Below are positions 31,665 through 53,776 of a stretch of DNA of 64,000 nt, piece after piece. The DNA comes from Candidatus Woesearchaeota archaeon (lineage in GTDB: Archaea > Nanobdellota > Nanobdellia > Pacearchaeales > GW2011-AR1), in contig CAYIGH010000003.1 of the NCBI GenBank assembly GCA_964362915.1, positions 1,756 to 65,755 on the forward strand, written 5' to 3'. Position numbers and translations under genes: made by a program. The notes beneath the pieces were generated by a model. That model saw nothing but the letters and a program-made list of their open reading frames with translations. It was not told where the DNA came from and made no database searches. Positions within the stretch are counted from its first letter, which is position 1, and each line of letters opens with the position of its first letter.

Positions 31665-33218
31665 ATGTTAAATCTGTCTCCTAGAGAATATCAAAAAGCA
31701 ATTTTTGAAACAGCAAAAAACAATAACACGTTAGTCGTGCTCCCCACAGGCCTTGGAAAAACTTTAATATCTCTCCTTTTGGCAGTTGACAGAATACAAA
31801 AATATCCTGCGAAAAAAATTCTCATGCTCGCGCCTACAAGACCTTTAGTAGAACAGCATTTCAATACATTTAAATCCCAGCTCCCGGAATTATATGCTGA
31901 TCTGCAGCTATTTATGGGCTCAATACATCCAAATAAAAGAAAATCAATATTCCAAACAGCAGATATAATCTTCTCAACACCGCAATGCATTGCTAATGAT
32001 CTAAAAAACGACTTATATAATTTAGAAGACGTTTCTCTTTTAATAATGGATGAAGCCCATCGTTGTCTGAAAAACTACGATTATACAGCAGTTGTTAATT
32101 ACTATAAGCAGCAGGCAAAAGCTCAAAGAATCCTGGGCTTAACCGCCTCTCCTGGTTCGGATTCATCAAAAATCAAGGAAATTTGCTCTCATCTCGATAT
32201 AGAAGAAATAGAAGTCCGTACAAGAGATTCAGAAGATGTTAAACCCTATCTAAAAGAAAGAGAATTTCAAAAAGTAGAAGTGCCATTCCCACTAGAATTC
32301 CAAGAAATAAAGGTTCTTCTAAAAAGAATCTATGATGAAAAAGTAGAGCGATTAAAATCAAGAAAACTTCTATTCGGCCCAATAAATAAAATAACTCTCC
32401 TTCAGCTCCAAAATCGTCTTGCAGCCAGAATTCCAATAAGAGACTTTAATGCGATGATAGGGATGTCTTTGACTGCTCAAGCAATAAAAATATCTCATGC
32501 AATGGAGTTGTTAGAAACCCAGACACTTTCAGGCCTAAATGAATATCTTATGAGTTTAATAAAACAAGCACAAGAAAAAAAGAGTCGGGCAGTACAATCT
32601 TTAGTTAAAACTCCTGAATTTAATGCGGTACTGATCTCCCTAAGAAATCTTCAGGCAAAAAAAATAGAGCATCCAAAAATAGAAGAACTTGCAGTACTAG
32701 CAGAAAACCAGTTTAAAGAAAATCAAAATGCTAAAATTATTGTATTTGCACAATTCAGAGAAACAGCCCAAACAATAGTAGATAGATTAAAGCAAATTCC
32801 AGAGATAAAAGCATCTATTTTCATAGGTCAGGCAAAAAAATCAAACTCCAGAGGCACTTCTGGCTTAAATCAAAAAGAACAGAAACAAATAATAGAAAAA
32901 TTCCGTTCGGGAGAAATAAATACCATAGTGGCAACTGCAATAGGAGAAGAAGGACTTGATATTCCGGAAGTTAGCGCAGTAATATTTTATGAGCCAATCC
33001 CTTCAGCAATAAGGAAAATCCAAAGAGCAGGAAGAACCGCCCGCCTCTCTCCAGGAAAATTAATCATCTTGATGACTAAAGACACCCGCGATATAGCATT
33101 CCATTATGCCTCATCAGCAAAAGAAAGAAAAATGTATAAAACTCTGGATGTTGTAAAACAAGAATTGAAAGAAAAGCAAAAAGATAATTCTCCGGCTCTT
33201 TCAGATTTTAAAACTTAA
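31665..33218 (+). CDS. hef: Hef-like DEAH-box helicase (helicase half only)
   Basis: Motifs PREYQKAIF, LPTGLGKT (Walker A), MDEAHR (DEAH), QRAGRTAR (motif VI). No nuclease domain in this ORF. Confidence 0.8.
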   Translation: MLNLSPREYQKAIFETAKNNNTLVVLPTGLGKTLISLLLAVDRIQKYPAKKILMLAPTRPLVEQHFNTFKSQLPELYADLQLFMGSIHPNKRKSIFQTADIIFSTPQCIANDLKNDLYNLEDVSLLIMDEAHRCLKNYDYTAVVNYYKQQAKAQRILGLTASPGSDSSKIKEICSHLDIEEIEVRTRDSEDVKPYLKEREFQKVEVPFPLEFQEIKVLLKRIYDEKVERLKSRKLLFGPINKITLLQLQNRLAARIPIRDFNAMIGMSLTAQAIKISHAMELLETQTLSGLNEYLMSLIKQAQEKKSRAVQSLVKTPEFNAVLISLRNLQAKKIEHPKIEELAVLAENQFKENQNAKIIVFAQFRETAQTIVDRLKQIPEIKASIFIGQAKKSNSRGTSGLNQKEQKQIIEKFRSGEINTIVATAIGEEGLDIPEVSAVIFYEPIPSAIRKIQRAGRTARLSPGKLIILMTKDTRDIAFHYASSAKERKMYKTLDVVKQELKEKQKDNSPALSDFKT

Positions 33219-33219
33219 A

Positions 33220-33447
33220 ATGAAAAATATACGGCTAAAACCCTGCCTAAAAAACTTAGAAAAGAAAAAAATAATTTCAAAAAGACCGCATCCTATAATT
33301 CCATTCATTATAACTGCTATAATCCCTCTCCTCTTCTTTATCAAAACATCTAATTATATATTAACAATCTCAATATACATATTATTCATCTTCTCATTAA
33401 TATTCTCAATTATCCATCTAATAATCTACAAACTCCTCCCTGCCTAA
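33220..33447 (+). CDS. small membrane protein
   Basis: 75 aa, two TM helices. Confidence 0.3.
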   Translation: MKNIRLKPCLKNLEKKKIISKRPHPIIPFIITAIIPLLFFIKTSNYILTISIYILFIFSLIFSIIHLIIYKLLPA

Positions 33448-33511
33448 AATGTTCCACAGCCTTTCAACAAAAACCCAAAACATTTATATATACATATACG
33501 TATACATATAT

Positions 33512-33724
33512 ATGTCAAAACTAATTAATATCTCAAATGAAATTTACAAAAAGCTTTCTACTATAAAAGGAAAAGAAAGCTTCTCTATAATAATTGAAAA
33601 TTTGTTGGAAAAAAAAACAAATAAAGATGCCATTTTAGCATGTGCCGGAAAAGGAGGCTTAAACGAAGATGCGTTAAAATCTCTTCGCAAAGACTGGAAA
33701 AAATGGTCAGACAAATATGCTTAG
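33512..33724 (+). CDS. vapB: VapB-like antitoxin
   Basis: Start at MSKLINISNEIYKKLSTIKGKESFSIIIENLL (archaeal VapB-type pattern). Overlaps the downstream PIN gene. Confidence 0.5.
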   Translation: MSKLINISNEIYKKLSTIKGKESFSIIIENLLEKKTNKDAILACAGKGGLNEDALKSLRKDWKKWSDKYA

Positions 33725-34083
33725 ATTCTGATGTTCTCATTGATCTGGTTCTGGGAAAAGAAGAAATAATAAATTTCATACAACAAACAGAAGCAGAATG
33801 GTTTACAACCACTATAAACATTTTCGAAATTTTGTCAGAGAGCAACGAAAAACAAAAAAATATTGAGAATTTAATCATAGGACTCAAAAAAATAGATTGG
33901 GATGAAAAATCAGCATTAAAAGCAGGAGAAATAAGAAAGGCCCTGAAAGAGAAAGGAGATATCATAGAAATAAGAGATATTTTTATAGGAGCGGCATGTA
34001 TTGAAAATAAACTCGAACTTTTAACAAATAATAAAAAACATTTTGAAAGAATGAAACAATTTGGATTAAAATTAATAGAATAA
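33703..34083 (+). CDS. vapC: PIN-domain toxin VapC
   Basis: MVRQICLDSDVLIDL (first acidic residue) and IFIGAACIENKLELLTNNKKHFE. Overlaps vapB by 22 nt. Confidence 0.65.
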   Translation: MVRQICLDSDVLIDLVLGKEEIINFIQQTEAEWFTTTINIFEILSESNEKQKNIENLIIGLKKIDWDEKSALKAGEIRKALKEKGDIIEIRDIFIGAACIENKLELLTNNKKHFERMKQFGLKLIE

Positions 34084-34124
34084 AAACAACTAAAATTTAA
34101 ATAATTCTATCGTCCTATTATATC

Positions 34125-34799
34125 ATGGTCTTTCACAACATCTTCTCAAAAAAATCAATTAAAGAAAAAACCTCTCAAATAATTATAATAGACAATAGAG
34201 AGAAAAATTCTCTCGTCATCTCGGAATTAATATCATTAAATGCAAAAATTGAATTAAAGCAATTAGAAGTTGCAGACTATATTATAGGCAATACAGCAAT
34301 CGAAAGAAAAACAATTTCTGATTTAATCTCTTCCATGCTTAATAAAAGACTTTTTCCGCAATTAGAAAACCTAAAACAATATGAAAACTGTCTTTTAATC
34401 ATCGAAAACTATCAAAACCTGGATTTAAAAGAAACAAAACTAAATGAAAATGCAATACGAGGCCTTCTCCTCTCAATCTCCTTAGATTATAAAATTCCAA
34501 TAATATTTACAAAAGACGAAAAAGATACAGCAATGTTTCTTAGCCTTATAGCAAAAAAGAAAAAAACAGAAATCTCGCTAAGAGCAAAACTCAAAATAAA
34601 GGACTCTCAAAGATTGCAATTTATTTTAGAAGGTTTCCCAAACATAGGCCCAAAAACAGCTAAAAAACTGCTAAAAAAATATAAAACAATAAAATCAATT
34701 ATAAATGCGCAGAAAGAAGAAATAAAATTCTTAATAGGAAAAAAAGCAGATAAATTTATAGAATTGATAAATAAAAAATATAAAGAAAAACTACCCTAG
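34125..34799 (+). CDS. xpf: XPF/ERCC4-family nuclease with C-terminal HhH2 (nuclease half of Hef)
   Basis: ERCC4 motif VADYIIGNTAIERKTISDLISS (ERK..D). HhH GFPNIGPKTAKKLLKKY. Confidence 0.8.
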   Translation: MVFHNIFSKKSIKEKTSQIIIIDNREKNSLVISELISLNAKIELKQLEVADYIIGNTAIERKTISDLISSMLNKRLFPQLENLKQYENCLLIIENYQNLDLKETKLNENAIRGLLLSISLDYKIPIIFTKDEKDTAMFLSLIAKKKKTEISLRAKLKIKDSQRLQFILEGFPNIGPKTAKKLLKKYKTIKSIINAQKEEIKFLIGKKADKFIELINKKYKEKLP

Positions 34800-35351
34800 T
34801 CTATAAACTTCCAAATCCTTGTAAACTGGCCCTAATTCTCTAAGTTCACTTTCCTTCAGCTTAAATTCATTAACTTTAAATCTCACATCTCGCAATTTCA
34901 ATCCAGAAACATAATCCATAAAATCTTTTTTATCTTTGACATATTTTACGCGGGCAATTGTCATGTGACTCATAAATCTCTCCTCTTCCTTGAATCCACA
35001 TTCTTTCAAAATCATATCCACTTTTTTCTGCAGCTCAAATATTCCTTTTCCAGCAACTTTTATCCAGACAATTCTTGGCATGCCATGAAAATTAAAAGTT
35101 CCTGCTTTCTCCAATCTCGCCTCAAATTTCTCAAATTTAACCTCCCTCAGCTTCTGCATAACTTCCTCCAATTTCAAATCATCAATTTCCCCAAGAAACT
35201 TAAGTGTTAAGTGTGCATTTTCTAATTCAGTTAATTTCCCGGTAAATTTTCTCTTTCCCAAAATATTCTGCACACGAGCCACTTCTTTTATAACATTATC
35301 AGGAAGCTCAATAGCTATAAAAGTCCTATGTACTCTTTCATTTTCTTCCAT
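34791..35351 (-). CDS. thpR: RNA 2',3'-cyclic phosphodiesterase / 2'-5' RNA ligase (2H family, LigT/ThpR)
   Basis: Two H-x-T-x motifs (AHLTLKFLG and SHMTIARV). Confidence 0.75.
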   Translation of the reverse strand: MEENERVHRTFIAIELPDNVIKEVARVQNILGKRKFTGKLTELENAHLTLKFLGEIDDLKLEEVMQKLREVKFEKFEARLEKAGTFNFHGMPRIVWIKVAGKGIFELQKKVDMILKECGFKEEERFMSHMTIARVKYVKDKKDFMDYVSGLKLRDVRFKVNEFKLKESELRELGPVYKDLEVYRLG

Positions 35352-35580
35352 ATTTCATTTCAACAAAATTCTCAATTTTCTCTTTATTATAAATAAAAGG
35401 AATATGCTTCTTTTTTTCAAAATAATCAGAAGTTTTCCTAATTTTTTCAATAGCCCTTTCTCTTTTTGACATAGAATAATATGCCTTTTCCCTATTAAAA
35501 CAATAAAACACGCCTAAAATAATTCCGCAAGAAAACATTGCATATCCAAGTAATACCAAACTCTCCAGTCTTCTTTCCAT
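35338..35580 (-). CDS. small membrane protein
   Basis: 80 aa, one TM helix. Confidence 0.35.
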   Translation of the reverse strand: MERRLESLVLLGYAMFSCGIILGVFYCFNREKAYYSMSKRERAIEKIRKTSDYFEKKKHIPFIYNKEKIENFVEMKYGRK

Positions 35581-35610
35581 AAAATGAACACTCTAATTGA
35601 ATATTTAAAT

Positions 35611-35725
35611 TTTTTACCTTTTTAACATTTCCAAGAGGATTGAAATTATATACCTCAAGTTAAAAAGCTTCATCACATTCAACAAAGTTCAGGGCAATAT
35701 AAAAGTGTACAAGAAATCATCTCTT
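35611..35725. repeat. intergenic repeat family copy R1 (core plus 3' module)
   Basis: Core ttttacctttttaacatttccaagaggattgaaattatatacctcaag. 3' module ttcaacaaagttcagggcaatataaaagtgtacaagaaatcatctctt, about 88% identical to 38654-38705. Confidence 0.6.
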
Positions 35726-36003
35726 CCATTTCCCTATCAAGAATTCATTGTTGAAAGCTCAGAGTATCAAGGAGAATTTTTCGTAGCGACAATTGATAGA
35801 CCAATGTAGGTTCTCGGAAAACCTTGCCCATCAGAAAGAAGCGATCTTTTTGGCCCTATCAACAACTACGGCTTAGACCCAGCAATAGGGGCCGCCCACT
35901 GTAAAATATTTAAATACGATATTCCAAAAATAAGATAAAGAGGACAAAAAATGAGCAAAACACTTAAAGAGTCAGGTTCTCTAAGAATAGAATAAAAAGA
36001 AAA

Positions 36004-37323
36004 ATGAGCAAAACACTTCAAATCAGCAAGATCGCAATGTGTGGTGTATGCCTTATCTTCAGCATTGCAACAGTCTTCGCAGCATACGCAGAAATAACCG
36101 CTCCCCAACAAAATGAGTATGTAAATGATGAGGAAATCTCTATTGAAGGAATTGCAATTGCTGATGAGGGCTCTACGTTTACTAAATGGGTACTTGAGCT
36201 CGGAGCCTTTGATCAAGGAATCTTTAATCCAACAAGAACACTCACTTCATCAACAGAGCAAAAAAGAGGCAGTGTAGATGAAGAAGAATTAATAGAAGAA
36301 GATGAAGAAAGATTAATAAGGGGTGTCCCTCTTTATACTCTTGATCTTTCCAGCCTCCCTATAGGAGAGCACGCACTCCGTCTTACAGCAATAGACACGA
36401 AAGGAGTAGATACATTTACCGCCGCTTTCTATAAAACTCAGAGCATTAAACTCAATCTCAGGCATCATCTCAACAAAGAATTCTATCAAGTCATTATCTT
36501 CTTTTATGGAGAGATAATAACATTCTTTACTGTTGAGTCAGACCCTTTATATGCAAAAGTTCTGGGTAATGGGAATCCAGATCCAGAGCAAGGCCCTATC
36601 ACAGACTGTCTCTCTGCCTGCGACCTTACTATAGATCTCTTCTCTATAGAAGAAAAAGCACAGGAAGAAGGAGATATCCAAGTCATCGCAGAAGATACTG
36701 ATGGAACATTCTACTCCTTTTACAAAAAATTTGATGCAAGAAATGGCATCAAAGAATTCACGTTTGATACTTCAACGACAAGAGAAATAAAAGCAATTGA
36801 AAGAGCAAAAGCCCGCCTTCCGTCATCGGCAGAGTATGTTCTTGCATATTCTCCAGAATATCCCTTTTATTTTATGCCAACTGATGAAACCGACTCTCTC
36901 AAAATACAAGTAGACACCAGAGAAGAAAACAATCTTCGCTACAATGATTATGAGCTCACAATCCGCTTTGACCTCATCCAAGGAGAGAACATCGTCTACG
37001 CCGAAGTTCCTCTTTTCTACCCTTTTGAAGAAAGCCAGGAAGAAAAAGATTTTATCAGAGGAGATGTTGACGGGAGTGGCAGAGTGGATATCAGCGATGC
37101 TATTTTCATCCTAAACTACTTATTTGCAGGAGGTGCTTCTCCAAGATGTGAAGACGCAGCAGATGCAAATGACGACGGAAAAATCGAAATAGCAGATGCA
37201 ATCAACATCCTTTCTTTCCTGTTCACAGGGGGAAAACCACTCCCTCCACCCGACATAAATACACCAGCAGGTTTTCGTTTTGATACAACCTCTGACAGAT
37301 TCATCTGTATACAGGAGATTTAA
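36004..37323 (+). CDS. secreted protein with C-terminal dockerin-like repeat pair (P5)
   Basis: Signal peptide. C-terminal GDVDGSGRVDISDAIFILNYLFAGGASPRC followed by ADANDDGKIEIADAINILSFLFTGG. Confidence 0.6.
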   Translation: MSKTLQISKIAMCGVCLIFSIATVFAAYAEITAPQQNEYVNDEEISIEGIAIADEGSTFTKWVLELGAFDQGIFNPTRTLTSSTEQKRGSVDEEELIEEDEERLIRGVPLYTLDLSSLPIGEHALRLTAIDTKGVDTFTAAFYKTQSIKLNLRHHLNKEFYQVIIFFYGEIITFFTVESDPLYAKVLGNGNPDPEQGPITDCLSACDLTIDLFSIEEKAQEEGDIQVIAEDTDGTFYSFYKKFDARNGIKEFTFDTSTTREIKAIERAKARLPSSAEYVLAYSPEYPFYFMPTDETDSLKIQVDTREENNLRYNDYELTIRFDLIQGENIVYAEVPLFYPFEESQEEKDFIRGDVDGSGRVDISDAIFILNYLFAGGASPRCEDAADANDDGKIEIADAINILSFLFTGGKPLPPPDINTPAGFRFDTTSDRFICIQEI

Positions 37324-37324
37324 A

Positions 37325-38437
37325 ATGCAAAGATATATTATCAAAAAACAACTGTTCGTTTTAGGAGCCTTTTTCATAATCATACTCATCTCTTCAGCAT
37401 CTGCTGTTGAAAGAGTTAAATACACACCACCAAAAGAACGACCGATAATTGCTAATGGTTTGTGGTTAATCAATGAAAAACCAGGAACAGCGGAAGGAGG
37501 ACTTACCCCAACAGGTCGAGACCATACAGGTCGACAAGAATATCGATACAGCCCAGAAGCAAAACTTGATGGAACAGCTGCCCCTGACAGAGTAAAAGTA
37601 AAAAATGGATTTATCTATATTGAATCATGGGTTGGTCCTGTATATAATTACGAGGGGCATCCAAACGACGGAGAAGCTATAGTGGGGTCACAGGCACTTA
37701 CTCCAGAAGGGAAAAAAATACCAATAAAGGAAGAGGGTGATTGGATACCTTCTATAGGAAGAAACGAAAAAAAGGGCCAGGTAAAGTGCGAAGAAATCAG
37801 TGAAATTATCCTTGACCTAAAGGGTGGAGATGATATAGCTGTTGAATTACCAGCATGTGACACGACAAATAAAGAAACATGGGGGGGCGTACATGCTATC
37901 GATGGATCAAAAATTATGCGATCTGTTGAGCCTAAGAAATTTATAACGGCTGACCTCGGACGTGGAGATGATAAAATCCTTACAGGTCGTGGAAAAGGTC
38001 ATACAGTAAAGGGAATAGGAGGCAATGATAACATCATAATGCAAGGAAAGGGATCGAATCATGTAGCTGGAGGAGATAATGATGACACGATTTTTGGGAG
38101 CTATTACAGTAAAAGTGAAAACTCCATTTGCGGTGGCAAAGACAAGGATACGATTACAGCAAGAGGCGGCACAAACAAAATACGAGGAGCAGACGGAACT
38201 GATACAATAACAATAATGAAAGGAAAAGGAAAGGGGCAGGGTGATGAGCCAAAAGAAGAAGATGGTATGAAAAAAGATGAAATGATTTGTGATGAGGATA
38301 GCTCAGATATAAAATGTGATCCCGATACCCTCGAAGAACCAATAATCTTTGTGGATCCTGACCTCGCAGCAGATTGTCCTAAAAATCAAGAATCAGATAA
38401 TCCCACACCTCCTCCAGAACCCCCGATCTCACATTAG
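37325..38437 (+). CDS. secreted protein with RTX/hemolysin-type Ca-binding nonapeptide-like repeats
   Basis: Start at MQRYIIKK (signal peptide) right after the P5 stop. Repeats GGNDNIIMQ, GGDNDDTIFG, GGKDKDTITARGG, GADGTDTITI. Pro-rich C-terminus. Confidence 0.55.
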   Translation: MQRYIIKKQLFVLGAFFIIILISSASAVERVKYTPPKERPIIANGLWLINEKPGTAEGGLTPTGRDHTGRQEYRYSPEAKLDGTAAPDRVKVKNGFIYIESWVGPVYNYEGHPNDGEAIVGSQALTPEGKKIPIKEEGDWIPSIGRNEKKGQVKCEEISEIILDLKGGDDIAVELPACDTTNKETWGGVHAIDGSKIMRSVEPKKFITADLGRGDDKILTGRGKGHTVKGIGGNDNIIMQGKGSNHVAGGDNDDTIFGSYYSKSENSICGGKDKDTITARGGTNKIRGADGTDTITIMKGKGKGQGDEPKEEDGMKKDEMICDEDSSDIKCDPDTLEEPIIFVDPDLAADCPKNQESDNPTPPPEPPISH

Positions 38438-38496
38438 TAGATGACTTTTCCAGGTAAAATAAGTTCTTCTATTCGTGTTAATCAAAATTACTATCA

Positions 38497-38707
38497 TTAA
38501 TTCCCAAGCAATTGAAATGATATACATCGAGTTAAATTTTACCTCTTTTTAATTCCCAGGGTATTGAAATTATGTACAACGAGCTGATTTCATAACCTCC
38601 TTATCAATAAATAGAGCAATATAAATAATAGTAGTTCAAGTCAAAACTCTTCACCTCCTTCAACAAAGTTTAGGACCACATAAAAGTGCACAAGAAATCA
38701 TCTCTTT
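38497..38707. repeat. intergenic repeat family copies R2a and R2b (tandem cores plus 3' module)
   Basis: Two tandem core units (taattcccaagcaattgaaatgatatacatcgagttaaa, then ttttacctctttttaattcccagggtattgaaattatgtacaacgag), followed by the conserved 3' module ending at the stop of gene 38698..39741. Confidence 0.6.
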
Positions 38708-39741
38708 AAAAATTCCTCAAGCCACTCGCCATGTTTTCTCAAGCTTCTTAAAACATACTCTTCCCGTTCAGGAATCTCTTCATAAGGCTCTTGAAGAACT
38801 TCTCTTGCCATAAACCACTCCCTTCCATCAAGAGCAGCCTTCCGCATAGCTTCTTCAAGGCGAAAAAGCGAAAAAAAAGATGGAAGAGTTTGAAGAAAGC
38901 AGACAAGCGAGCCAATTCTCACTCTTGGATGTTGATAAGGAGAAGTATGAAGAATGATTTCAGTCAATGCAATTCTCTTCTGCATATCAGGCTGATGCAA
39001 AACCCCTTCCTGCAAAGCCCTGTCATACAAACATCCTCTGCCTCCCAGAATGCTTGAACCCTGTAAAAGATACTTCTTCTCCTCATAAGTAAAATCTCTC
39101 ATCATCACTTGAGAAACAACATGTTCAATCCTCTCTGTATGCGAAGCAGGATTCTCACGAGATAGAAAAAACTTACCAAAAGAATCTGCCTCTCCCTTAT
39201 GTAAAAATTCCTCAGCATGAACCAAATCCTTAAAAGCGTATTTCCTCTCCAGAACGAAATTAGGAGAATCGCTATAAAAAAAACCTTTTCCGGAATTCAA
39301 TATCTCTTCAGCATGAAAAACATCAAACCGAGCTTGAGAATCAGCTCCTTTCAAATAATGAACCAAAAATCTACGATAATCAAAATCCAGAAAAAGATAC
39401 TCCCTCACATTCTTCTGAACAGCAAAATCAGGAGTATCTTCAAAAACATGTTGAATCACTGCGCTCTTATGCCTTCTTCCAGTCTTTAAGGTATCGCGAT
39501 CCAAAACATATCTAACTTCCTCTTGTATAACCTCTCTCACAACCTCGCATAGCTGAGCAAGTTCTCTTAAAGAAAAACAGGGATTCCTCTGCTCCTTCAC
39601 ATACTCCCTAAGAAAATCTCGAAGTTCATGATACTGTTCCTGTCTCCTCAAATAAAAGAAAGCATCAGCAGATCCTACATGATACTCTTCTCTAAGAAAA
39701 TGAATATCTCTTAATTTTTCTATTAAATGCAGTTGATTCAT
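38698..39741 (-). CDS. hypothetical protein, compositionally atypical (higher GC, R/E/H/F/Y-rich)
   Basis: 347 aa with no motif I can name. Codon and GC usage differ from neighbouring genes. Confidence 0.45.
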   Translation of the reverse strand: MNQLHLIEKLRDIHFLREEYHVGSADAFFYLRRQEQYHELRDFLREYVKEQRNPCFSLRELAQLCEVVREVIQEEVRYVLDRDTLKTGRRHKSAVIQHVFEDTPDFAVQKNVREYLFLDFDYRRFLVHYLKGADSQARFDVFHAEEILNSGKGFFYSDSPNFVLERKYAFKDLVHAEEFLHKGEADSFGKFFLSRENPASHTERIEHVVSQVMMRDFTYEEKKYLLQGSSILGGRGCLYDRALQEGVLHQPDMQKRIALTEIILHTSPYQHPRVRIGSLVCFLQTLPSFFSLFRLEEAMRKAALDGREWFMAREVLQEPYEEIPEREEYVLRSLRKHGEWLEEFLKR

Positions 39742-39907
39742 ACAATATCCAGTTATCTGCTATTTATAAAATTTACTACTTAAAAAAGGATACAAAAATC
39801 CAGGAGATAAGCCGAAAATGAAAATTCGCAAGCATGATCACCCATTCCTGCCAGGATTCCCACCCGGGAAAGAATTTATTATAATATTTCATGGTGATTA
39901 GGCAAGT

Positions 39908-39965
39908 TAATTTTTACCTTCATCAATTCCCAATCATATAGATTATGTACTATCAATTACGGACT
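39908..39965. repeat. intergenic repeat family copy R3 (diverged core)
   Basis: tttttaccttcatcaattcccaatcatatagattatgtactatcaattacgg aligns with the R1/R2 core (TTTTACCT..TTCCCAA..ATTGAAAT/ATAGATTAT..TAC). Confidence 0.45.
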
Positions 39966-40294
39966 AACTTTTTTGATTTTCAGCTTTTATAACCCTTAAT
40001 ACACCAATAAACAACGATTTTAAATTGCAAGTAATATCTATAGAAAATTGTGTTAATGAGTCTATATTTTCTAGCAATTTTCTGTCTATTGAATTAAAAT
40101 TTTACTTTCAACATTTTATTGGTATAGTTTATGCACTAATAATTACCTAATTTTGTATAATAATCAAAGCAATTATCTATAATAAGTATTTTATCATAAA
40201 TTATCGTCGTTATTATAGAATAATTGGGCTATTTTTTGGTCCGGAAAGTACTCAATCACCTATTTCAAACAGGAAAACAGATAAAAAGACTATC

Positions 40295-40419
40295 AAAAAA
40301 ACAAGAGCCACCACGCCTTAAAAGGTGTGGTTTGTGAAAGGCTCTTGTTTTTAGGATGATCAGAATTGAAAACCCTAAAGCTACTACCACACACTAAAGT
40401 GTGTGGTTTTCAATTCTGA
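40295..40419. terminator. two tandem long hairpins plus T-tract immediately 3' of gene 40433..43321
   Basis: Hairpin 1 has arms aaaaaacaagagcc/ggctcttgttttt with an inner ccacgcc-ttaaaa-ggtgtgg stem. Hairpin 2 has a perfect 15-bp stem tcagaattgaaaacc/ggttttcaattctga with an inner ccacacac-taaa-gtgtgtgg stem. On the minus strand hairpin 1 is followed by TTTTTTTGATAGTCTTTTTATCTGTTTTCC. Confidence 0.5.
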
Positions 40420-40432
40420 CATAAAATTTTCA

Positions 40433-43321
40433 TCAAGGAATAGGCCATGTATCGCAAAGCGAGCATCCGCACCCGCACGTGTAATAGGTAGTGACAACAC
40501 ATGCGGATTCGACAATGGCAAATTCATCAGTAGGATCAGCATCTCCAACTCCCTGTTCTTTGGTCTCATGACGCAGGTAAGGAAGCGCTCTGCAATACTG
40601 ATCATTTCCTTCATCACGCTCGCAATTAGTCTGCTGACAGGATGCTCTTGGATTACATGGACCAAAAGTCCCTTCTGCTGCACGCTTAGGACATTCTACA
40701 TTCACAAGATAGGCCTCATTACTCTTTTTTCCAGCCTCAAAACATGGTTCACCATGATCTAGTGGAAAGAGTCTCCAAGGAACTGCTACTTCAACAGCAT
40801 CTACACTTGTCCTTCTTCTATCATCGCAAACACTATCATCACTACTCATCGGAGGTCGAGGGTCTTGAGGCGGCGGATCATCATCATCATCACCTGGCGG
40901 CGTATAAGGAATTTGCTTTGGTGGTACCCTGAAGTCTCCACCACTCTTACTCCCCCATTTCTGTATTTCACTATCACTTTTAAGACCAACTTCAAATCTT
41001 GGCGGACCATCTGGAGAACCACCAGGAAAAAAATCCTCAGGACTAAACTTTCCTCTTCCAAATTGCTTTAGTACAGCCTTGAACCCTTCTTCGTCTTTTT
41101 TCCACAAAAGATTTTCAAGAATCGCATTTGCCCCCCCAATAGTGAGATCATTTTCACCTAATCTTTTTCTGAGATAATCAAGAATCTCACCACTGACTGC
41201 AGGATCAGGACTATTAAGAGCCTTCCGCATATTCCAAAACACTGTTTTAAGATTGCTAGTAACATCCACGCCATATTCTTTATTGAATTTCTCCGCAATT
41301 TCCAACATAAGATCACCGGTATGTGCCTGTGCCATGGTAAGTGCCTTATTAGCGGCCCTTTCAACAGCACCCTGCATGTCGGAAAGTTGTTTTGTTCTTT
41401 GAGCAAGGTCTGTCTGAACCCCAACTAAAGAATTAACTGCTTCACTCAATTTCTCTCCCAAATCTCTAGGAGGGGGATTGGGATTCTCCAGAGATTTCTC
41501 CAAGTTCTCCAGCAATGACTTGTAAGTGTTAATCTCTTCTATTTTAGTTTTCAGAGTTTCTTCCATCCTACTCAGAAGTTCTTTTGCTTCAGGCAAAGTA
41601 CTATATTCACCAGGTCCAACAGGTTTATTAATAGACTCTACTATAAAACTTTTGGCATCTTCAAGGTGTTCAAGTGCCTCAGGAATATGCTCATGAACAG
41701 CTGTGCTTACAGCCGCCTTTGCAGCTTCAGTATTTCCTGCTCCTACAAAAGCATCAGCATCAGTGACACTTACAGCAGCATTTCCAAGACTCACGAGTCC
41801 ATCGCGCACCGAACCTAGAGTATTCCCTACAGGATGATACGTTGCTTCTAAAGTTCCAAGCGCTGCCGCCAGTTGCTTCAGAACCTGCTGTTCCTCAGGA
41901 GTAAACTTATTCGGATCCCTATAAAAATCCTCCACGAGAGCCTTTGCTTTCTTAAACACCTCCTGCGCACTGCGTCTAAGCCCCTCACTACCAATGCTTG
42001 AGGCAAGAACAAGACTGTTTGCAGTTAATGTTGCCGTAGTCATATGCGTAATAGTCTCGACAAAAGCAAAATCATAAACGGGCTTTGCCAGAAGTCCTGC
42101 AAGAGCAAGCTCCCCAATAACAGCCACTGTTATTGCCAGAGGTGAAGTCAATATAATCGCTCCTGTTGTAATAAGTTCTTTGATTAAAGTAGCATCACCG
42201 ACAATAACAGCCACACCCCCCTCACTTTTCAATACAATAACCCCAGCTACTGCGCCTGCCGCAAGCGCAGGATCTCTTACAGGCAGTGAAATGCCAGATT
42301 CTGTAACAAAAGTCCCAATATCTTGTGGTTTCTCAGCAGGTCTCCATTCAGGAACCCACCCTGCTCTTTGCCCGAAATCCGTGTCTTCTTGATCCTTAAG
42401 CGGCCCATCATAAACATTCCCTATTTTCTTTGTACCATCATGAGACAGAATATCGCCATTTTTTGCAATACTTCCGTCAGGATTACGGAAATTGCAATTC
42501 AATATCCCAGGACACTCCCAAACACTAACAAATCCCTGAAAAAGTCTGACATGATACCCAGGAAACGTTCTATCAAGATCATGATACGCCTTCAAATACT
42601 CCTGCATAACAAAAATAGAAAAGGCCTCCAGACTAAGATCATTAAAAACAGAATCCCGAGGAAAAGAATCAGCAGGAGCATTAGCTAAAAACTGAATTCC
42701 TCGAAGAGCATCAGGATCATTCACAATGTCTTGAAGAGCATCAGGATCATTCACAATATAAGCAATCTCTATCTCGCCCTCTTGAGATTCAGGAATAAAG
42801 CATTGAACAGGAGGCTGCCCTCTGCCATGAGTTGTTTCATCATTATCATTAGCATCAGAACATTTAGGATCATCTAAATCAATTAAGCCATTATTATCAT
42901 TATCATGAGTATCAGAACATTCAGGAGGAGTAAAATCAGGATCAATAACCTTGGGATCAGGAGGAGCAGGACCTCCCTGAAATAAATATCTCAGAAGAGA
43001 AACACCATCAGTTATATCTATTTTATTGTCACTATTAACATCAGCTGTCCTTGGACATTGAAGCCTCTTCCCATCCTGATTATTAAATAAATACTGGAGA
43101 ATAAACACCGCATCACTAATATCCATTCTTTCATCATCATTCACATCTCCTCGTATATAAGGCCGGGTCAATTTCGTAAGAAATCTTTCTATTTCATCAT
43201 CAGTAAGAGGAACAATATCCTCTTCTTCATCATCAGCAGCAACTCTCGGAATCTCTGAAAAGACCAGCAAAACTACAAAAAATACAAAATAACATTTAAT
43301 AAACATCGCCTTCTTTTTCAT
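40433..43321 (-). CDS. large secreted protein (P6) with N-terminal dockerin-like pair, helical central region and Cys-rich C-terminus
   Basis: Signal peptide. GDVNDDERMDISDAVFILQYLF and ADVNSDNKIDITDGVSLLRYLF. Long alpha-helical middle, hydrophobic stretch, C-terminal Cys cluster (TCGCGCSLC). Higher GC than the genome background. Confidence 0.6.
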   Translation of the reverse strand: MKKKAMFIKCYFVFFVVLLVFSEIPRVAADDEEEDIVPLTDDEIERFLTKLTRPYIRGDVNDDERMDISDAVFILQYLFNNQDGKRLQCPRTADVNSDNKIDITDGVSLLRYLFQGGPAPPDPKVIDPDFTPPECSDTHDNDNNGLIDLDDPKCSDANDNDETTHGRGQPPVQCFIPESQEGEIEIAYIVNDPDALQDIVNDPDALRGIQFLANAPADSFPRDSVFNDLSLEAFSIFVMQEYLKAYHDLDRTFPGYHVRLFQGFVSVWECPGILNCNFRNPDGSIAKNGDILSHDGTKKIGNVYDGPLKDQEDTDFGQRAGWVPEWRPAEKPQDIGTFVTESGISLPVRDPALAAGAVAGVIVLKSEGGVAVIVGDATLIKELITTGAIILTSPLAITVAVIGELALAGLLAKPVYDFAFVETITHMTTATLTANSLVLASSIGSEGLRRSAQEVFKKAKALVEDFYRDPNKFTPEEQQVLKQLAAALGTLEATYHPVGNTLGSVRDGLVSLGNAAVSVTDADAFVGAGNTEAAKAAVSTAVHEHIPEALEHLEDAKSFIVESINKPVGPGEYSTLPEAKELLSRMEETLKTKIEEINTYKSLLENLEKSLENPNPPPRDLGEKLSEAVNSLVGVQTDLAQRTKQLSDMQGAVERAANKALTMAQAHTGDLMLEIAEKFNKEYGVDVTSNLKTVFWNMRKALNSPDPAVSGEILDYLRKRLGENDLTIGGANAILENLLWKKDEEGFKAVLKQFGRGKFSPEDFFPGGSPDGPPRFEVGLKSDSEIQKWGSKSGGDFRVPPKQIPYTPPGDDDDDPPPQDPRPPMSSDDSVCDDRRRTSVDAVEVAVPWRLFPLDHGEPCFEAGKKSNEAYLVNVECPKRAAEGTFGPCNPRASCQQTNCERDEGNDQYCRALPYLRHETKEQGVGDADPTDEFAIVESACVVTTYYTCGCGCSLCDTWPIP

Positions 43322-46023: not shown

Positions 46024-46453
46024 AGAAATTGAATTATTAGATAGCAATATTCTTATTTATGCTTACGATTCTAGCGAAAAAGAAAAACATGCCATCTCTA
46101 AAAACTTACTTGCTAATTGTTGGAAAAGAAAAAAAAGTTACGCCCTCTCTGTACAAAATCTTTCTGAATTATTTGTAGTAACAACAAAAAAAATTACTTC
46201 TCCGGTCAAACCAGATGAAATGAAAAAGAACATTCAAGATATTACTTCTTTTTCTAATTTCACTATTTTAACAATAAATAAAAATAATATTTTAAGTGCT
46301 ATAGAAATTTCTTCAGAGCATAACATTTCTTATTGGGATGCGCTTATCGCTTCTGTTATGAAAGAAAACCATGTTTATAGTATTATTACAGAAAATGATA
46401 AAGACTTTAAGAAAATTCCTTGGTTAAAAGTTACTAATCCTTTTATTAAATAA
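46001..46453 (+). CDS. vapC: PIN-domain toxin VapC
   Basis: ELLDSNILIYAYD plus ITENDKDFKKI (conserved acidic residues of the PIN fold). Confidence 0.65.
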   Translation: MSCMTENKEIELLDSNILIYAYDSSEKEKHAISKNLLANCWKRKKSYALSVQNLSELFVVTTKKITSPVKPDEMKKNIQDITSFSNFTILTINKNNILSAIEISSEHNISYWDALIASVMKENHVYSIITENDKDFKKIPWLKVTNPFIK

Positions 46454-46470
46454 AAATTAAATAGCCAATA

Positions 46471-48645
46471 TCAGCAAATTACCTCTATATATCCCTCGCT
46501 ATTTACCCTTCCATTTTGTCCATCTTGAGCATTGCCCTTAACTCGCTCCCATAATTGTTCTATAGATTTTTTTCTCTGTGGATAGCATTTGCATTTAGGC
46601 TCACCAATAAGTTTTACTCTTTCGGGATTTACTATTTCAGAAGGATCACTTTCACCTTGACTCTTAATATGAATTCCCTCCAATTCGCATACCCATCGAT
46701 TTAAAGCCACTTGTAATTGCGGATTTGTCTGGCCAACATCTACTTCAATAACTCTAGAATGAGCATCCTCAACAACAGCAAAAATAGACGCTTTATATTC
46801 ATCTAAACTAGAAGGAGGAATCCCGCTCTGAAACCCTCCTGGAAACCCTCCTACAGGAGGAATTAAAAATGCTTTTAAAGGGATATGCTTCCCGGGATGA
46901 GTAAACCAAACAATCTTCGGACTTCCTATATTCTCCTCTCCTTCTACTAAATATTTCTTAATATCAAAACTCCCTTTGCCCCCAGACATAGGAAGGTTTT
47001 TTTGTTCTTTGCGATTATTCTGGCAAAATTTATCTTTTTCATACCAACATGACACAAAGCCAGAGAGCTGAGGGAATCGCGGATCATTACGAATCTTCTC
47101 CTCAGTATTCTCATCTACCGTTCTCGATCTTGATAAAAGGGAATTATAATCAAGCAGCTCCATCTGGCGAAGACTTTTTTCTTGCTTAACCTCACTTTCC
47201 TTATGCATATAACTATCAAAATTCTCTAAATCAACCATATCTTCATCCGAACTATCCTTTACAAAACCAACATATCTGCTTTCTTTAATATCAATAAGGA
47301 GGGCATCCCCGCCGGCATTTTCTTTTCTAATTTTAGAAGTAGATGTCCTCTTAATAAACTCAAACTCCTTACATTCTTCAGGATTGCTGTTTTTTTCAAG
47401 CTCAGCTACAATAAATGCCCCATAAGTAACAAAATAAGAACCATCGGGTTTAGTCTCCTCTTCTTTAAAGCTAACATCTGTTCCCTTGCTCCATCCCTGG
47501 ACTAATCCAAGGGGCTTATTCATATTATGAAATTTATCTTTTGCAGAAGGTATTGCAAAATTTCCTTTACCAATACTTATTAATCTCTGATTCCGTATAC
47601 TAAGTTGCGCTTCTGTTAAAAAAAGCTCTGGTTTATCAAAACCCTTAGGAATCTTATCATCTTTCCCCCTTAAGATTTTCATAGAGACAACATTACAAGG
47701 GCTTTTCCCTTTGCACATAGGGGGCGTTACAGAATTATCACATACTTCATTTTCTTTCCATTCAATATCTGTAGCTTTATGTCCTACATAATATTTCGCA
47801 CATGTACCATCATACTTGACCAAATCATCACTTTCACATTCGCTTTTGACCGTTTGTGCGCATGTTGTTTCCCCATTAGAGCAGGTTATTGAACAACATG
47901 CACTCGGCACTTGTGATATGCCACTATCTCCATCTCCTGGCGGAAATAAACCTAAAAGATGCATAGAATTCGCAATAGTTACTTTCAAAAAACTTTCAGC
48001 CTTGGTCCCAATTCCATCCTCACACATTGCCTTTAGCAAATAGTCTCTTCCAACCTGTAATCCAAATGATTCATCAATAACAACCCCATAAGGATTAAGA
48101 AGAAATACTTCAGAATTAACGCTTCCAGCTTCACTAAGAATAATCTCTTCTCCTCCATTCAATAAAAAGGCAGAAAGCTTACAATGCTTCATACTTCCTG
48201 CTCTTGCTCCAATAAAAATATTTGCAGGAATCTCCAAACTCATCTCAGGCCGTTCAATATTTTCTCCCTTTTCATTAACATAATCAACATATAAAAATGC
48301 AATCTCTAAAGGATTTTCCGAAATAGGTTTATCTTCCCAAGAATAAAATCCTCTAGGCGCATCACCTCCTCTAAACAAATAATTCAATAAAAAAATAGCA
48401 TCTGTAATATCTAATCTCTTATTATCGTCCAAATCTCCCCTCTCAAGACAACTGATATCTCCCGCCCATTTAAACAAATAATTCAATAAAAAAATAGCAT
48501 CTGTAATGTCTGTTCTTTCATCTCCATTAACATCTCCTCTTCGCCACGCCTCTCTATTAGAACAGGATTCCAGTGCAAAGACAAATATACTAAAATATAT
48601 TATTAAAAAAATAATTGTTAAACTAAACAAAACCCCTTTTTTCAT
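46471..48645 (-). CDS. large secreted Cys-rich dockerin-like protein (P2, paralog of P1)
   Basis: Likely start MKKGVLFSLTIIFLIIYFSIFVFA (48645) rather than the track start at 48723. RGDVNGDERTDITDAIFLLNYLF and GDLDDNKRLDITDAIFLLNYLF. ACCSITCSNGETTCAQTV. C-terminus RWVCELEGIHIKS...CKCYPQRKKS. Confidence 0.65.
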   Translation of the reverse strand: MKKGVLFSLTIIFLIIYFSIFVFALESCSNREAWRRGDVNGDERTDITDAIFLLNYLFKWAGDISCLERGDLDDNKRLDITDAIFLLNYLFRGGDAPRGFYSWEDKPISENPLEIAFLYVDYVNEKGENIERPEMSLEIPANIFIGARAGSMKHCKLSAFLLNGGEEIILSEAGSVNSEVFLLNPYGVVIDESFGLQVGRDYLLKAMCEDGIGTKAESFLKVTIANSMHLLGLFPPGDGDSGISQVPSACCSITCSNGETTCAQTVKSECESDDLVKYDGTCAKYYVGHKATDIEWKENEVCDNSVTPPMCKGKSPCNVVSMKILRGKDDKIPKGFDKPELFLTEAQLSIRNQRLISIGKGNFAIPSAKDKFHNMNKPLGLVQGWSKGTDVSFKEEETKPDGSYFVTYGAFIVAELEKNSNPEECKEFEFIKRTSTSKIRKENAGGDALLIDIKESRYVGFVKDSSDEDMVDLENFDSYMHKESEVKQEKSLRQMELLDYNSLLSRSRTVDENTEEKIRNDPRFPQLSGFVSCWYEKDKFCQNNRKEQKNLPMSGGKGSFDIKKYLVEGEENIGSPKIVWFTHPGKHIPLKAFLIPPVGGFPGGFQSGIPPSSLDEYKASIFAVVEDAHSRVIEVDVGQTNPQLQVALNRWVCELEGIHIKSQGESDPSEIVNPERVKLIGEPKCKCYPQRKKSIEQLWERVKGNAQDGQNGRVNSEGYIEVIC

Positions 48646-48688
48646 GAAAAAACTTCGTTGATAAATTATATAAATCTTTAGAAAAGTG

Positions 48689-48904
48689 CTAAAAGAGTCT
48701 ATATGATCTGCCGTTATTATCAATTATCCTGACCTTTTTGATATCTAGTTTCCTCAAGGGTTCAGGAAAAATATATTTTTCTTCCCTAGAAGAATAATAT
48801 CTCTCAGCAAATTCCAATCCAGCAAATCCTGCCACTCCTAAAGCCGCCAACCCCAACCCTAAAACAATCCAATTCCTAACATATTCTCTCATGAATAAAT
48901 ACAA
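48689..48904 (-). CDS. small single-TM protein, cassette partner A
   Basis: MYLFMREYVRNWIVLGLGLAALGVAGFAG.... The N-terminus and 70 nt of upstream DNA are about 95% identical to 53380..53691. Confidence 0.5.
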   Translation of the reverse strand: MYLFMREYVRNWIVLGLGLAALGVAGFAGLEFAERYYSSREEKYIFPEPLRKLDIKKVRIIDNNGRSYRLF

Positions 48905-48968
48905 AAATCAAGCCATATAAACTTTACTCCAAAATTTTAGAAACATAAAAAGCCTTAAATAAGCCTGG
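48867..48968. promoter_or_regulatory. conserved 5' module (promoter plus first codons) of cassette A
   Basis: About 100 nt, about 95% identical to 53660..53758. On the minus strand it contains TTTATAT about 27 nt upstream of the ATG. Confidence 0.5.
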
Positions 48969-53758: not shown

Positions 53759-53776
53759 TAAAGCTATCACAAAATC

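Follow-up and report, generated by a model that had tools for sequence, protein, structure and literature searches.

Composite intergenic repeats at the endpoints of a two-gene indel, and a PATE-like double hairpin, in a Woesearchaeota surface-protein islet

Genes and base composition of the islet

The window analysed here is a 64-kb stretch of DNA from a Candidatus Woesearchaeota archaeon, and the islet within it (36004-43321) holds four genes. The first two, both on the plus strand, form a variable block: a secreted protein of 439 aa (36004..37323), whose C-terminal dockerin, read from the letters in an earlier note, is borne out by Pfam (Dockerin_1, E 2.8e-8), and an RTX-like, membrane-anchored protein of 385 aa (37280..38437; 370 aa from the ATG at 37325). 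The HemolysinCabind match of the second protein (E 0.002) falls below the Pfam cut-off, but a 29% identical protein of 428 aa in contig L017 carries PF00353. That homologue is encoded after P0009, the sole full-length homologue of the 439-aa protein (37% identity, in contigs L017-L019), and the pair stands there among different neighbours than here. Judged from these sequences, the two genes behave as a module.

The remaining two genes lie on the minus strand. The 347-aa protein (38698..39741) is all-helical and is a neighbour of the repeat array both here and in a related contig, L011, described below. Its one close homologue is P0002 (80%), and a search of 1.84 billion representatives yields 16 remote ones; it falls in no Pfam family and has no Pfam or PDB sequence match, and its AF2 model (pLDDT 73) has no fold match. 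The 962-aa protein (40433..43321) combines a signal peptide, a dockerin, a long helical region and a Cys-rich C-terminus, much as had been described, with the dockerin now placed at the N-terminal end (Dockerin_1 at residues 58-113, E 9.9e-7). Between this gene and the M16 peptidase gene is a 52-bp spacer with nothing in it but the 962-aa gene's own TATA box, so that the description of the islet as bounded by repeats holds on its left side and fails on its right.

No other 7 kb of the window is as GC-rich as the islet, at 0.396 (whole window 0.338; next-highest 7.3-kb stretch 0.362), or deviates as far in tetranucleotide composition; islet genes range from 0.386 to 0.423 against 0.330 +/- 0.037 for the others. 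This could be taken as the donor signature of recently acquired foreign DNA, and it fits such a reading that GC is 39% in the contigs with the homologous gene pair and that the 439-aa gene has no TATA box at the canonical -29 of its ATG at 36004. Most of the excess, however, sits at codon position 1 (GC 0.542 in the islet versus 0.416, z 2.35), whereas GC3 rises only from 0.255 to 0.298 (z 1.1), and the 962-aa gene, with an overall GC of 0.423, has a GC3 of just 0.278. D, P, A and T are enriched in the islet proteins, and I, K and N depleted; the GC excess thus reflects mainly amino-acid composition (codon positions 1 and 2) and gives no clear foreign-DNA signal. Moreover, the 347-aa gene is equally GC-rich and yet is shared with L011 beside the same neighbour, one surface-type gene outside the islet (58396-60672) is as GC-rich at 0.423, and the homologues in the 39% GC lineage are just 29-37% identical. 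The enrichment itself is real, as the earlier note had it, but we regard a recent foreign origin as distinctly unlikely.

Repeat arrays and an indel between this genome and a close relative

The intergenic spaces around the gene pair contain copies of a short plus-strand repeat, the "core" of the earlier note, which we call unit A. Three copies are significant with a 4-sequence nhmmer model (E 5e-14 to 6e-12): R1 at 35606..35664 (E 1.3e-12, and 5e-10 with a 10-sequence model), R2a at 38486..38537 (E 6e-12) and R2b at 38540..38588 (E 4.9e-14). The same three were recovered as family D6 by a repeat-family search, with R2a and R2b in tandem at a 52-nt period. A fourth copy had been proposed; this possible degenerate unit (R3, 39912..39950 on the plus strand, start also given as 39909) is marginal, being the top non-training match and the best of the background yet non-significant alone (E=1.2 with the 4-sequence model, E=0.099 with the 10-sequence model). 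The 64-kb window contains no further unit A copies. A search with the core pattern gave 3 matches against 0.42 expected, a number reached in 0/100 shuffles, so that within the window the motif does occur at a non-random frequency. The tandem and its ATTGAAA motif recall an orphan or degenerate CRISPR array, in which more than two near-identical 24-48-nt repeats alternate with unique spacers about as long. Here the 35-nt conserved part is ~83% identical, just 17 nt lie between copies of the 52-nt period, there are two to three units, and TRF reports no array; we rejected this candidate.

Downstream of unit A, R1 and R2b had also been said to share a 3' module, and they do, over 72 nt at ~85% identity. 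This module, unit B', lies at 35655..35745 in R1, an interval that includes ~20 nt beyond the module proper, and at 38636..38725 in R2b, both on the plus strand, and in R2b it overlaps the stop and last codons of the 347-aa gene on the opposite strand. Family D8 joins the two over 71 nt at 85% (the R1 copy to 38636-38706) and blastn over 84 nt at 82%, and tblastx and blastn carry the similarity on for another ~20 nt, which brings it into the final codons of the 347-aa gene (on the R1 side to ~35752). The description of R2b as core plus 3' module is right in its two parts, but the ~50 nt between them, an apparent insertion, are a separate repeat, unit B (38573..38644, plus strand). Because B' aligns over its whole length with the unit B consensus, at ~66%, R1 can be written as A-B' and R2 as A-A-B-B'. 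The units are ~50-70 bp long and carry the motif CRAGYTRA at their ends. Units A and B have neither terminal inverted repeats nor duplicated flanks, which speaks against MITEs; a diversity-generating retroelement was likewise set aside, since on inspection the differences between R1 and R2b are of every type and not confined to adenines, and Pfam scans of the islet and flanking proteins found no reverse transcriptase.

The R1 and R2 arrays are in direct orientation and bracket the 2.9-kb two-gene module. Between R1 and the first gene, the unique part of the left junction (35746..36003, plus strand) is a spacer of higher GC (0.39) that contains a disrupted reading frame of 78 codons, and within it the 5' end of the 439-aa gene is tandemly duplicated over ~53 bp (35946-35999 versus 36000-), giving a 14-codon upstream ORF.

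The key comparison is with L011, a contig of 1556 bp obtained from a different sample, with flanks that are 86-87% identical to the window. It aligns to window positions 39797-38643 and 35726-35393, and the two alignments overlap by 65 nt within one spacer; in other words, a single A-B' array in L011 joins the side of the 80-aa gene and LigT to the 347-aa gene, and the two-gene block is missing between the same flanking genes. In a three-way alignment L011 tracks R1 through unit A and then R2b from CTCTTCACCTCC onward. Unit A of L011 is 86% identical to that of R1, whereas R1 is ~69-79% identical to R2a and R2b; for B', R2b and L011 agree at 63/71 positions, and R1 agrees at 60/71 with each of them. 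By this pattern of identities, L011 carries the orthologue of R1 in its A part and that of R2b in its B' part. One hybrid array in L011 against two arrays here means that the 2.9-kb gene pair is an insertion or deletion whose endpoints lie within the repeats, either inserted here or deleted there, the alternative arrangement being seen in one relative, the closest known.

We think it somewhat probable, on balance, that the composite repeats (A, B and B') served as the joints of this indel, with the structured element E140 (below) a separate, PATE-like component of the locus. Recombination between or within the A/B repeats would have made the arrays such joints: crossing-over between the two direct arrays could have deleted the gene module or, in the reverse sense, the module could have integrated into a pre-existing array. 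R1 and R2b agree at ~82-85% of positions and nowhere match exactly over more than 17 nt, which makes them a poor substrate for recent homologous recombination, so the event would be old or would have used another mechanism. Among the three origins that had been suggested for the repeats (regulator binding sites, small-RNA genes and scars of inserted DNA), scars are the best supported, since the repeats are the indel endpoints in the L011 comparison; the part of that idea that called for acquired DNA finds no clear signal in the GC excess, and the event may have run either way.

Integrase-mediated insertion would also leave repeats at such places, with R1, R2 and R3 as attachment-site duplications of a genomic island or of integron-like cassettes. 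Direct repeats do flank a block present in one genome and missing in another, the composition of the block is atypical, and the repeats stand at cassette-like gene boundaries. However, Pfam scans of eight proteins (four from the islet and four flanking) revealed no integrase or recombinase, and the window contains no tRNA gene. Instead of a short core of perfect identity, the repeats show 82-85% identity over >100 nt, the genes run in both orientations, attC-like R''/R' motifs (RYYYAAC...GTTRRRY) were not seen on inspection, and the same units occur at many unrelated intergenic sites elsewhere. We consider this origin very improbable, and integron attC sites or gene cassettes in particular were rejected on the missing integrase, the mixed gene orientation and the non-palindromic nature of units A and B.

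Dispersal of the units and their possible functions

The repeats are copies of small interspersed elements that are dispersed across genomes rather than private to this locus, an aspect that the earlier note had missed. In blastn searches, window positions 38551-38646 match ten other archaeal contigs at 75-85% identity, with unit B itself matched at 75-85% over 55-75 nt in L099, L136, L034, L116, L133, L134, L084, L058 and L130, and a unit-B HMM finds 27 matches at E<0.01 in ~540 kb of other contigs. Unit A has a match in L119 (E 2.5e-6, with a model built from the window and L011 alone) and relatives in L030, L099, L116 and others; like unit B, it is matched at 75-85% identity in archaeal metagenome contigs. 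In these genomes, which belong to several groundwater DPANN-type archaea, the A/B units are intergenic and occur singly or in short tandem arrays. A scan of a genome-contig set gave 7 matches, all at chance level, and no clean pair of filled and empty sites for A/B units was found among the sites compared.

We considered whether the repeats might instead be promoter or operator modules kept for co-regulation, their likeness reflecting selection on a shared regulator site and not a history of recombination. A TTTAWATA box stands at -29 to -27 in ~22 of the window's 57 genes, which indicates leaderless archaeal promoters, and the left edge of R1 holds just such a box: the TATA box TTTAAATA of the 80-aa gene and LigT operon (35602..35609, minus strand), which begins at precisely -29 relative to the ATG at 35580. 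TATA-like boxes also occur inside both units (GAAATTATATAC in A; TTTATATTGC in B, on its reverse strand), about half of the non-redundant unit-B copies (~6-7 of 11, by eye) lie 30-150 nt upstream of a co-oriented gene, and near-identical promoters reused before unrelated genes have been documented in prokaryotes (PMC3575422). On the other hand, R2a, R2b and unit B stand where two genes converge and no gene begins, and the 347-aa and 962-aa genes are each provided with a canonical TATA box outside the repeats (at -29/-27 and -28, respectively), the 439-aa gene having none at such a distance. No ORF starts at leaderless distance from the TATA-like boxes of the units, and the mini-ORF after the unit B box is unconserved, its ATG missing in 3-4 of 14 copies. 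Finally, a promoter motif would require far less than the nucleotide identity observed, which is 75-85% over 70-100 nt between genomes with 30-55% protein identity. A promoter role, and with it the suggested regulator site, is thus plausible only for the left edge of R1, where the TATA box is, and as a general account of the repeats we judge it unlikely.

The suggestion that core and 3' module together are the gene of a small non-coding RNA, present here two to four times and acting antisense to the 3' end of the 347-aa mRNA or as a C/D-box-like guide, fares worse. A plus-strand BRE/TATA-like sequence could direct a start ~25 nt downstream, with a transcript running through the 3' module to a T5 at 35789-35793, and there is a weak C/D-box snoRNA match on the minus strand at 35642-35681 (SNORD57, 17.9 bits, E 6.1). 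Yet Rfam gives 0 matches at the gathering score in the window and, over 35300-40500 at E up to 10, nothing above chance level, and predicted folding energies of the repeats show no excess stability over shuffles (z -0.40, +0.40, -1.12, -2.35, +0.77 and +1.04). By inspection the C and D boxes match imperfectly and their spacing is wrong, and both R2b and L011 lack any equivalent of the long-range stem found in R1 (TTCAACAA/TTGTTGAA). We hold such an RNA gene to be highly improbable, and the reading of the repeats as indel joints remains the one we favour.

The double-hairpin element E140 and relation to known systems

The one strongly structured element of the region, which the earlier note had not picked up, is E140, a PATE-like double hairpin of 136 nt (40292..40427, plus strand); at its 3' end it directly adjoins the 962-aa gene's stop codon. 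Its minimum free energy is -59 kcal/mol (z -9.85), and compensatory pairs number 6 among 3 sequences and 10 of the 30 predicted pairs among 29. E140 is single copy in the window (E 6.6e-40), 82% identical to the copies in L017 and L018, and belongs to a family with >120 matching metagenome stretches, mostly 131-340 nt long, of which a single 117-kb contig bears up to 8 or more. All 88 of 88 non-redundant copies are intergenic. The family is modular, with 0-4 extra small hairpin modules, in ~50-nt steps, between two domains. Rfam on four E140-bearing loci gives nothing that overlaps E140 but a sub-threshold U3 match, no recurrent protein family was found beside the copies, and the sites compared include no clean filled and empty pair.

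In an alignment of 29 copies the ends of E140 are sharp (ATCA...GACATNA); they read ATCA(C/A)AAA... and ...TTCTGACATNA and are not inverted copies of each other. No duplication of the flanks is visible in these copies, the left end always being ATCA and the right end ATNA; a MITE was rejected on these grounds, and an integron attC site on the inconsistent orientation of the element relative to its neighbours. Similar palindromes stand near both termini, each ~19 nt from the end (ACCGCGCCT-TAAA-AGGCGCGGT and ACCGCAGAC-TAAA-GTCTGCGGT), and the element is too short for a transposase and multi-copy. From these features E140 looks most like the non-autonomous PATEs of archaea. No transposase is encoded in the window, and Y1 (IS200-type) transposases occur in the same contig set, in L028 (Pfam Y1_Tnp, E 3.8e-24) and L037. 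At one site we see three fillings: an intact IS200-type element (L028), a deletion derivative (L085) and an E140 copy nested in a remnant (L045). Palindromes akin to those of IS200/IS605-type transposons in the same genomes are a mark of PATEs; the end hairpin of the L028 element, TCCGCCCCAC-TTTA-GTGGGCGGA, resembles E140 in stem length and loop but not in sequence. L017 and L018, which carry the homologous gene pair, are 99.9% identical to ~13096, after which compensatory changes appear in hairpin 2 and similarity is lost at the 3' end of E140; the colinearity of these two near-identical strains of a distant relative stops exactly at their E140 copy. We suggest that both E140 and the A/B units may be mobile, and that a Y1 transposase may move E140.

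A nucleotide identity of 75-100% for E140 and the A/B units between genomes with 30-55% protein identity implies that they are mobile across lineages or unusually constrained, and neither the E140 family nor the A/B units are found in Rfam 15 or in literature text searches. The genomes of DPANN archaea are small, and these organisms rely on contact with host cells, a contact thought to be mediated by surface proteins that are large and evolve fast. If the repeats are sites of surface-gene gain and loss, they would explain a variable surface repertoire in reduced genomes. A bolder and rather doubtful extension is that groundwater DPANN-type archaea carry undescribed A/B and E140 modules, perhaps moved in trans by Y1/IS200 enzymes, that spread across deeply diverged lineages as portable recombination joints, at which surface-gene modules (dockerin, RTX-like) would be inserted, deleted and exchanged; episymbiotic archaea would then, in effect, shuffle the genes of their cell surface as cassettes. 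In practical terms, metagenome assemblies break at such repeats, which also mark regions that are hypervariable, a point to bear in mind when DPANN genomes are binned and compared.

Short, structured, multi-copy intergenic repeats of the REP/BIME/REPIN and BOX families are mosaic or modular in build (BIMEs, BOX A-B(n)-C), clustered, and hotspots of recombination; to our knowledge these families have been described from bacteria and not from archaea. The repeats here are likewise short, multi-copy, intergenic and modular, with several types clustered in the same intergenic spaces, but they have no sequence relation to those families, and units A and B are not palindromic at all. REPINs rely in trans on a RAYT, a Y1 HUH transposase present in single copy (PMC8049555), whereas no RAYT-like gene was identified here. 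As in direct-repeat deletion or Campbell-type integration, two direct repeats flank a segment and the other allele keeps one hybrid repeat, although the repeats here are only 82-85% identical. Putative mobile promoters (PMC3575422) resemble the A/B units in that the latter carry TATA-like boxes and have similar copies upstream of unrelated genes in different genomes; they differ in that several A/B copies, including R2, face the 3' ends of genes and that the units form tandem arrays.

PATEs and IS200/IS605-type transposons have been described for the archaeon Haloquadratum walsbyi, as have repeat-mediated core deletions (PMC3119063). E140 departs from PATEs in its hosts, which are DPANN-type groundwater archaea, in its modular architecture and in the long outer stems around each palindrome, and no autonomous parent with E140 ends was found; its mobility is putative. 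It shares with them palindromes of the form ACCRCnnnn-TAAA-nnnnGYGGT without terminal inverted repeats, a non-coding length, a multi-copy and strictly intergenic distribution, and the presence of Y1 transposases in the same contig set. PATEs also lack target-site duplications, and none is visible around the aligned E140 copies. The mobile elements of Haloquadratum are, moreover, often nested (PMC3119063), as is the E140 copy that lies within an IS200-type remnant.

Repeat units between the islet genes

Within the islet, each of the three spaces between genes is a mosaic of interspersed repeats, and these coincide with differences in gene content between genomes. The islet (window 36004-43321) carries genes for a 439-aa dockerin protein, a 385-aa RTX-like protein, a 347-aa protein and a 962-aa dockerin protein, with an 80-aa gene and LigT as its left neighbours. 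Four intergenic copies of a core element, here called unit A, had been described from the sequence. Three of them, R1 (35606-35664), R2a (38486-38537) and R2b (38540-38588), are recovered by nhmmer with E values of 5e-14 to 6e-12, whereas the fourth, R3 (~39912-39950), is the best remaining core match and is non-significant (E 1.2 and 0.099). The core pattern matches three times in the window against 0.42 matches expected, and three or more matches occurred in 0 of 100 shuffles; across the genome contig set it yielded seven single chance matches, in unrelated bacteria. An 18-nt exact core match in L017/L018 (6807-6824), contigs of a distant archaeon, lies within a membrane-protein coding region and was discarded as chance. 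The 3' module attributed to both R1 and R2b is indeed common to the two, extending the similarity by 72-90 nt at 82-85% identity. A putative third core copy, 'R2c', was rejected by nhmmer with the core model and turned out to be a different repeat, unit B.

The A and B repeats also occur outside this locus, in related metagenome contigs amounting to ~540 kb that were originally fetched for another purpose. Because the repeat models were trained in part on copies that they score, we base cross-genome claims on independent blastn matches: window 38551-38646, which comprises the end of R2b and an apparent 50-nt insertion, is matched by ten contigs at 75-85% over 55-75 nt. In the same ~540 kb, the unit B model finds 27 copies at E<0.01, some of which form tandem runs with a period of 59 nt. 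A unit A model trained only on the window and its relative L011 detects relatives in L119 (E 2.5e-6) and L030 (6e-5), and a broader model adds L099, L116, L110, L067 and others. Membership of these families is shown directly, as are the indel described below and the position of its endpoints. The 3' module was found only in the window (two copies) and in L011; over its whole length it can be aligned with the consensus of unit B (~66%), and it is therefore a diverged B, denoted B'. All units terminate in CRAGYTRA, and the arrays are composed as A-B' in R1, A-A-B-B' in R2 and A-B' in L011.

Each unit contains a TATA-like box, and about half of the unit B copies are followed, 30-150 nt downstream, by a co-oriented gene, the remainder facing gene 3' ends; a genuine promoter lies at the left edge of R1, where the 80-aa gene has its TATA box at precisely -29. 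Units A and B may have a regulatory function, though at low probability. The units fold with z-scores of -2.35 to +1.0, so that a stable fold is absent, and a small-RNA reading is unlikely. A C/D-box sRNA assignment for the 3' module was dropped, its boxes being imperfect and mis-spaced, its Rfam E value 6.1 and its fold unstable. Readings of the repeats as att sites or as CRISPR are likewise unlikely; CRISPR, DGR, attC and integrase-att identities were each rejected for lack of the defining features. A reverse-strand mini-ORF that follows the TATA-like box of unit B (MKL(T/A)RC(T/A)*) is not conserved and was discarded as coding since several copies have no start codon.

A two-gene indel with endpoints in the repeats

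The sole close homologue of the 347-aa protein among 5.8 billion proteins is P0002 (80%), encoded on L011, a 1556-bp contig from a different sample in which the homologue of the 80-aa gene directly adjoins the 347-aa gene. This one short relative contig provides the comparison for the indel. L011 aligns with window 39797-38643 and 35726-35393, the two alignments overlapping by 65 nt in one spacer. In a three-way alignment the L011 spacer tracks R1 through the core, follows R2b from CTCTTCACCTCC on, and then continues into the 347-aa gene. The 2.9 kb between the repeat sets, made up of a decayed spacer and the 439-aa dockerin and 385-aa RTX-like genes, is present in the window and missing from L011, and both endpoints fall within repeats.

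The L011 core is 86% identical to the R1 core versus ~69-79% to R2a and R2b, and the L011 module matches the R2b module at 63 of 71 positions, with R1 at 60 of 71 to either. These values fit orthology of the R1 and L011 cores and of the R2b and L011 modules. Mis-assembly of L011 is unlikely, because the longest exact word common to R1 and R2b is 17 nt and because the spacer, at ~120 nt, would fit within single k-mers of its assembly (as the contig name, k139, suggests). The same pattern would arise if two direct arrays had crossed over and the block had been lost in the L011 lineage, or if the block had integrated into a single array. We consider it most likely that the repeats are selfish or non-autonomous elements, or at any rate dispersed sequences prone to recombination, and that the A/B arrays would have served as joints of the two-gene indel.

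The two genes behave as a unit elsewhere too. The 439-aa protein has a single full-length homologue, P0009 (37%), which is again followed by an RTX-type protein. The contigs concerned belong to a distant archaeon, whose aEF-1beta is 55% identical, and the pair has other neighbours there.

Several small features accompany these spacers. The 5' end of the 439-aa gene is duplicated in tandem over ~53 bp (35946-35999 versus 36000-36046); the upstream copy retains a TATA box at -42 and a GAGG resembling a Shine-Dalgarno sequence and encodes only MSKTLKESGSLRIE*, and a TATA box at -29 is lacking for the annotated start at 36004. The intergenic stretch 35706-35940 (+; GC 0.39) holds a 78-codon frame interrupted by one TAG (VYKKSSLPFPYQEF...) and may be a decayed small gene; neither the window nor the loci retrieved for comparison contain a recognisable homologue. 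A GC-rich patch adjoining R3 (39773-39902) contains two overlapping small candidate ORFs on opposite strands, of 27 aa on the plus strand (MKIRKHDHPFLPGFPPGKEFIIIFHGD) and 38 aa on the minus strand (MKYYNKFFPGWESWQEW...).

Composition of the islet and its surroundings

The islet is the GC-richest 7.3 kb of the window (0.396 versus 0.338; runner-up 0.362) and deviates most in tetranucleotide composition. The GC excess resides at codon positions 1 (0.542 versus 0.416) and 2, the rise in GC3 being small (0.255 to 0.298); the islet proteins contain more D, P, A and T and fewer I, K and N, and one gene outside the islet is equally GC-rich. The composition of secreted, acidic, Pro/Thr-rich proteins accounts for the high GC better than recent import does. 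The proposal that repeats bound the islet fails on the right side, where there is none. The protein annotations largely stand, with two corrections: the 962-aa protein carries its dockerin at the N-terminus, and the RTX assignment of the 385-aa protein falls below threshold. The 347-aa protein has no Pfam or PDB matches; its single-sequence AF2 model is poor (pLDDT 36), and an alignment-based model (pLDDT 73) has no Foldseek match in PDB. A search with the neighbouring 80-aa protein returned only the query itself.

The window is archaeal in origin, encoding an intein-containing RadA, aEF-1beta, a split Hef helicase/nuclease, RFA and an archaeal-type TyrRS, and contigs nearly identical to it were recovered in groundwater metagenomes from Hainich, wells H51 and H43. 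One Hainich contig, L003, joins unrelated DNA inside the 385-aa gene (window 38267); we treat it as probably chimeric because its terminal 260 nt (1648-1907) are unmatched in the window and very GC-rich and its coverage is 2x. No tRNA genes or Rfam families were found in the window. A TTTAWATA box, usually preceded by AAGG, starts 27-29 nt 5' of the ATG in ~22 of the 57 window genes (-29 in 14, -27/-28 in 8), a strict geometry that indicates predominantly leaderless mRNAs.

Other features of the window are recorded here in their own right. RadA (603-4598, -; 1331 aa) has intein N- and C-terminal splicing motifs, giving at least one intein within the recombinase. Hef occupies two genes (31665-34799), helicase at 31665-33218 and nuclease at 34125-34799, separated by ~900 bp of small ORFs including a PIN-domain protein (33640-34083); the gap looks like a toxin-antitoxin-type insertion. 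A segmental duplication with copies ~5 kb apart (46096-48975 versus 51299-53761) includes paralogous dockerin-protein genes (46471-48645 and 51636-53342) and a 154-nt upstream/intergenic block at 79% (48789-48942 versus 53576-53729).

The double-hairpin element E140

A further, structured element, missed in the earlier note, lies at 40292-40427, its 3' end abutting the stop codon of the 962-aa gene. This 136-nt element, E140, is 82% identical to L017/L018 13012-13146, a non-coding stretch that follows the homologous gene pair at a distance of ~420 nt; this is far above expectation for genomes with 30-55% protein identity. The predicted fold has two domains, in each of which a long outer stem surrounds a 9-bp hairpin whose loop is TAAA (MFE -59 kcal/mol, z -9.85), and the opposite strand folds about equally well. 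Six covarying pairs are found among three sequences and ten among 29; Rfam holds no family for it. Wobble pairs show no strand bias (top strand G.U 8 and 6 versus A.C 17 and 3), and thus the structure may act in DNA or RNA.

A metagenome scan with the domain-2 arms matched at least 120 stretches. Among the matches listed, ~100 are true members, in both orientations and on contigs of 30-45% GC, with up to 8 or more per 117-kb contig, and all 88 non-redundant copies are intergenic. The family loci include L021-L139, with conservation of 82-100%. The ends are sharp (ATCA...GACATNA), with no inverted termini or duplicated flanks seen in aligned copies, and the element is modular, with 0-4 additional small hairpins between the domains in ~50-nt steps. 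No protein family is recurrently linked to E140 among 433 flanking ORFs, the largest cluster of which has six members and is HTH regulator-like. A scan of viral contigs gave one chance match, inside a coding region.

L017 and L018 are 99.9% identical up to mid-E140, where compensatory changes begin, and diverge totally at its 3' end. A search for clean filled and empty sites found none, and one complex site only. Directly after an E140 copy, L018 carries an AT-rich cyclodipeptide-synthase (CDPS) gene (~13171-13865) that L017, 99.9% identical elsewhere, lacks. Two copies of a 72-nt hairpin repeat with 90% identity (12765-12836 and 13887-13958) flank this gene, which looks like a cassette-type insertion.

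Y1/IS200-type transposases occur in contigs of the E140 family. L028 carries an intact IS200-type element (4909-5367) with a 152-aa Y1 transposase (Pfam E 3.8e-24), and a second Y1 transposase is encoded at L037 3099-3509. At the same site as the L028 element, L085 has a deletion derivative with just the last 16 codons left (2369-2567) and L045 has an E140 nested in an IS200-type remnant (513-748). The palindrome-associated transposable elements (PATE) of haloarchaea are non-coding, with similar near-terminal palindromes, no terminal repeats and no target duplication, and are related to IS200/IS605 (PMC3119063). Of the classes described, it is these that E140 resembles most closely, sharing at least three of the six features that define PATE.
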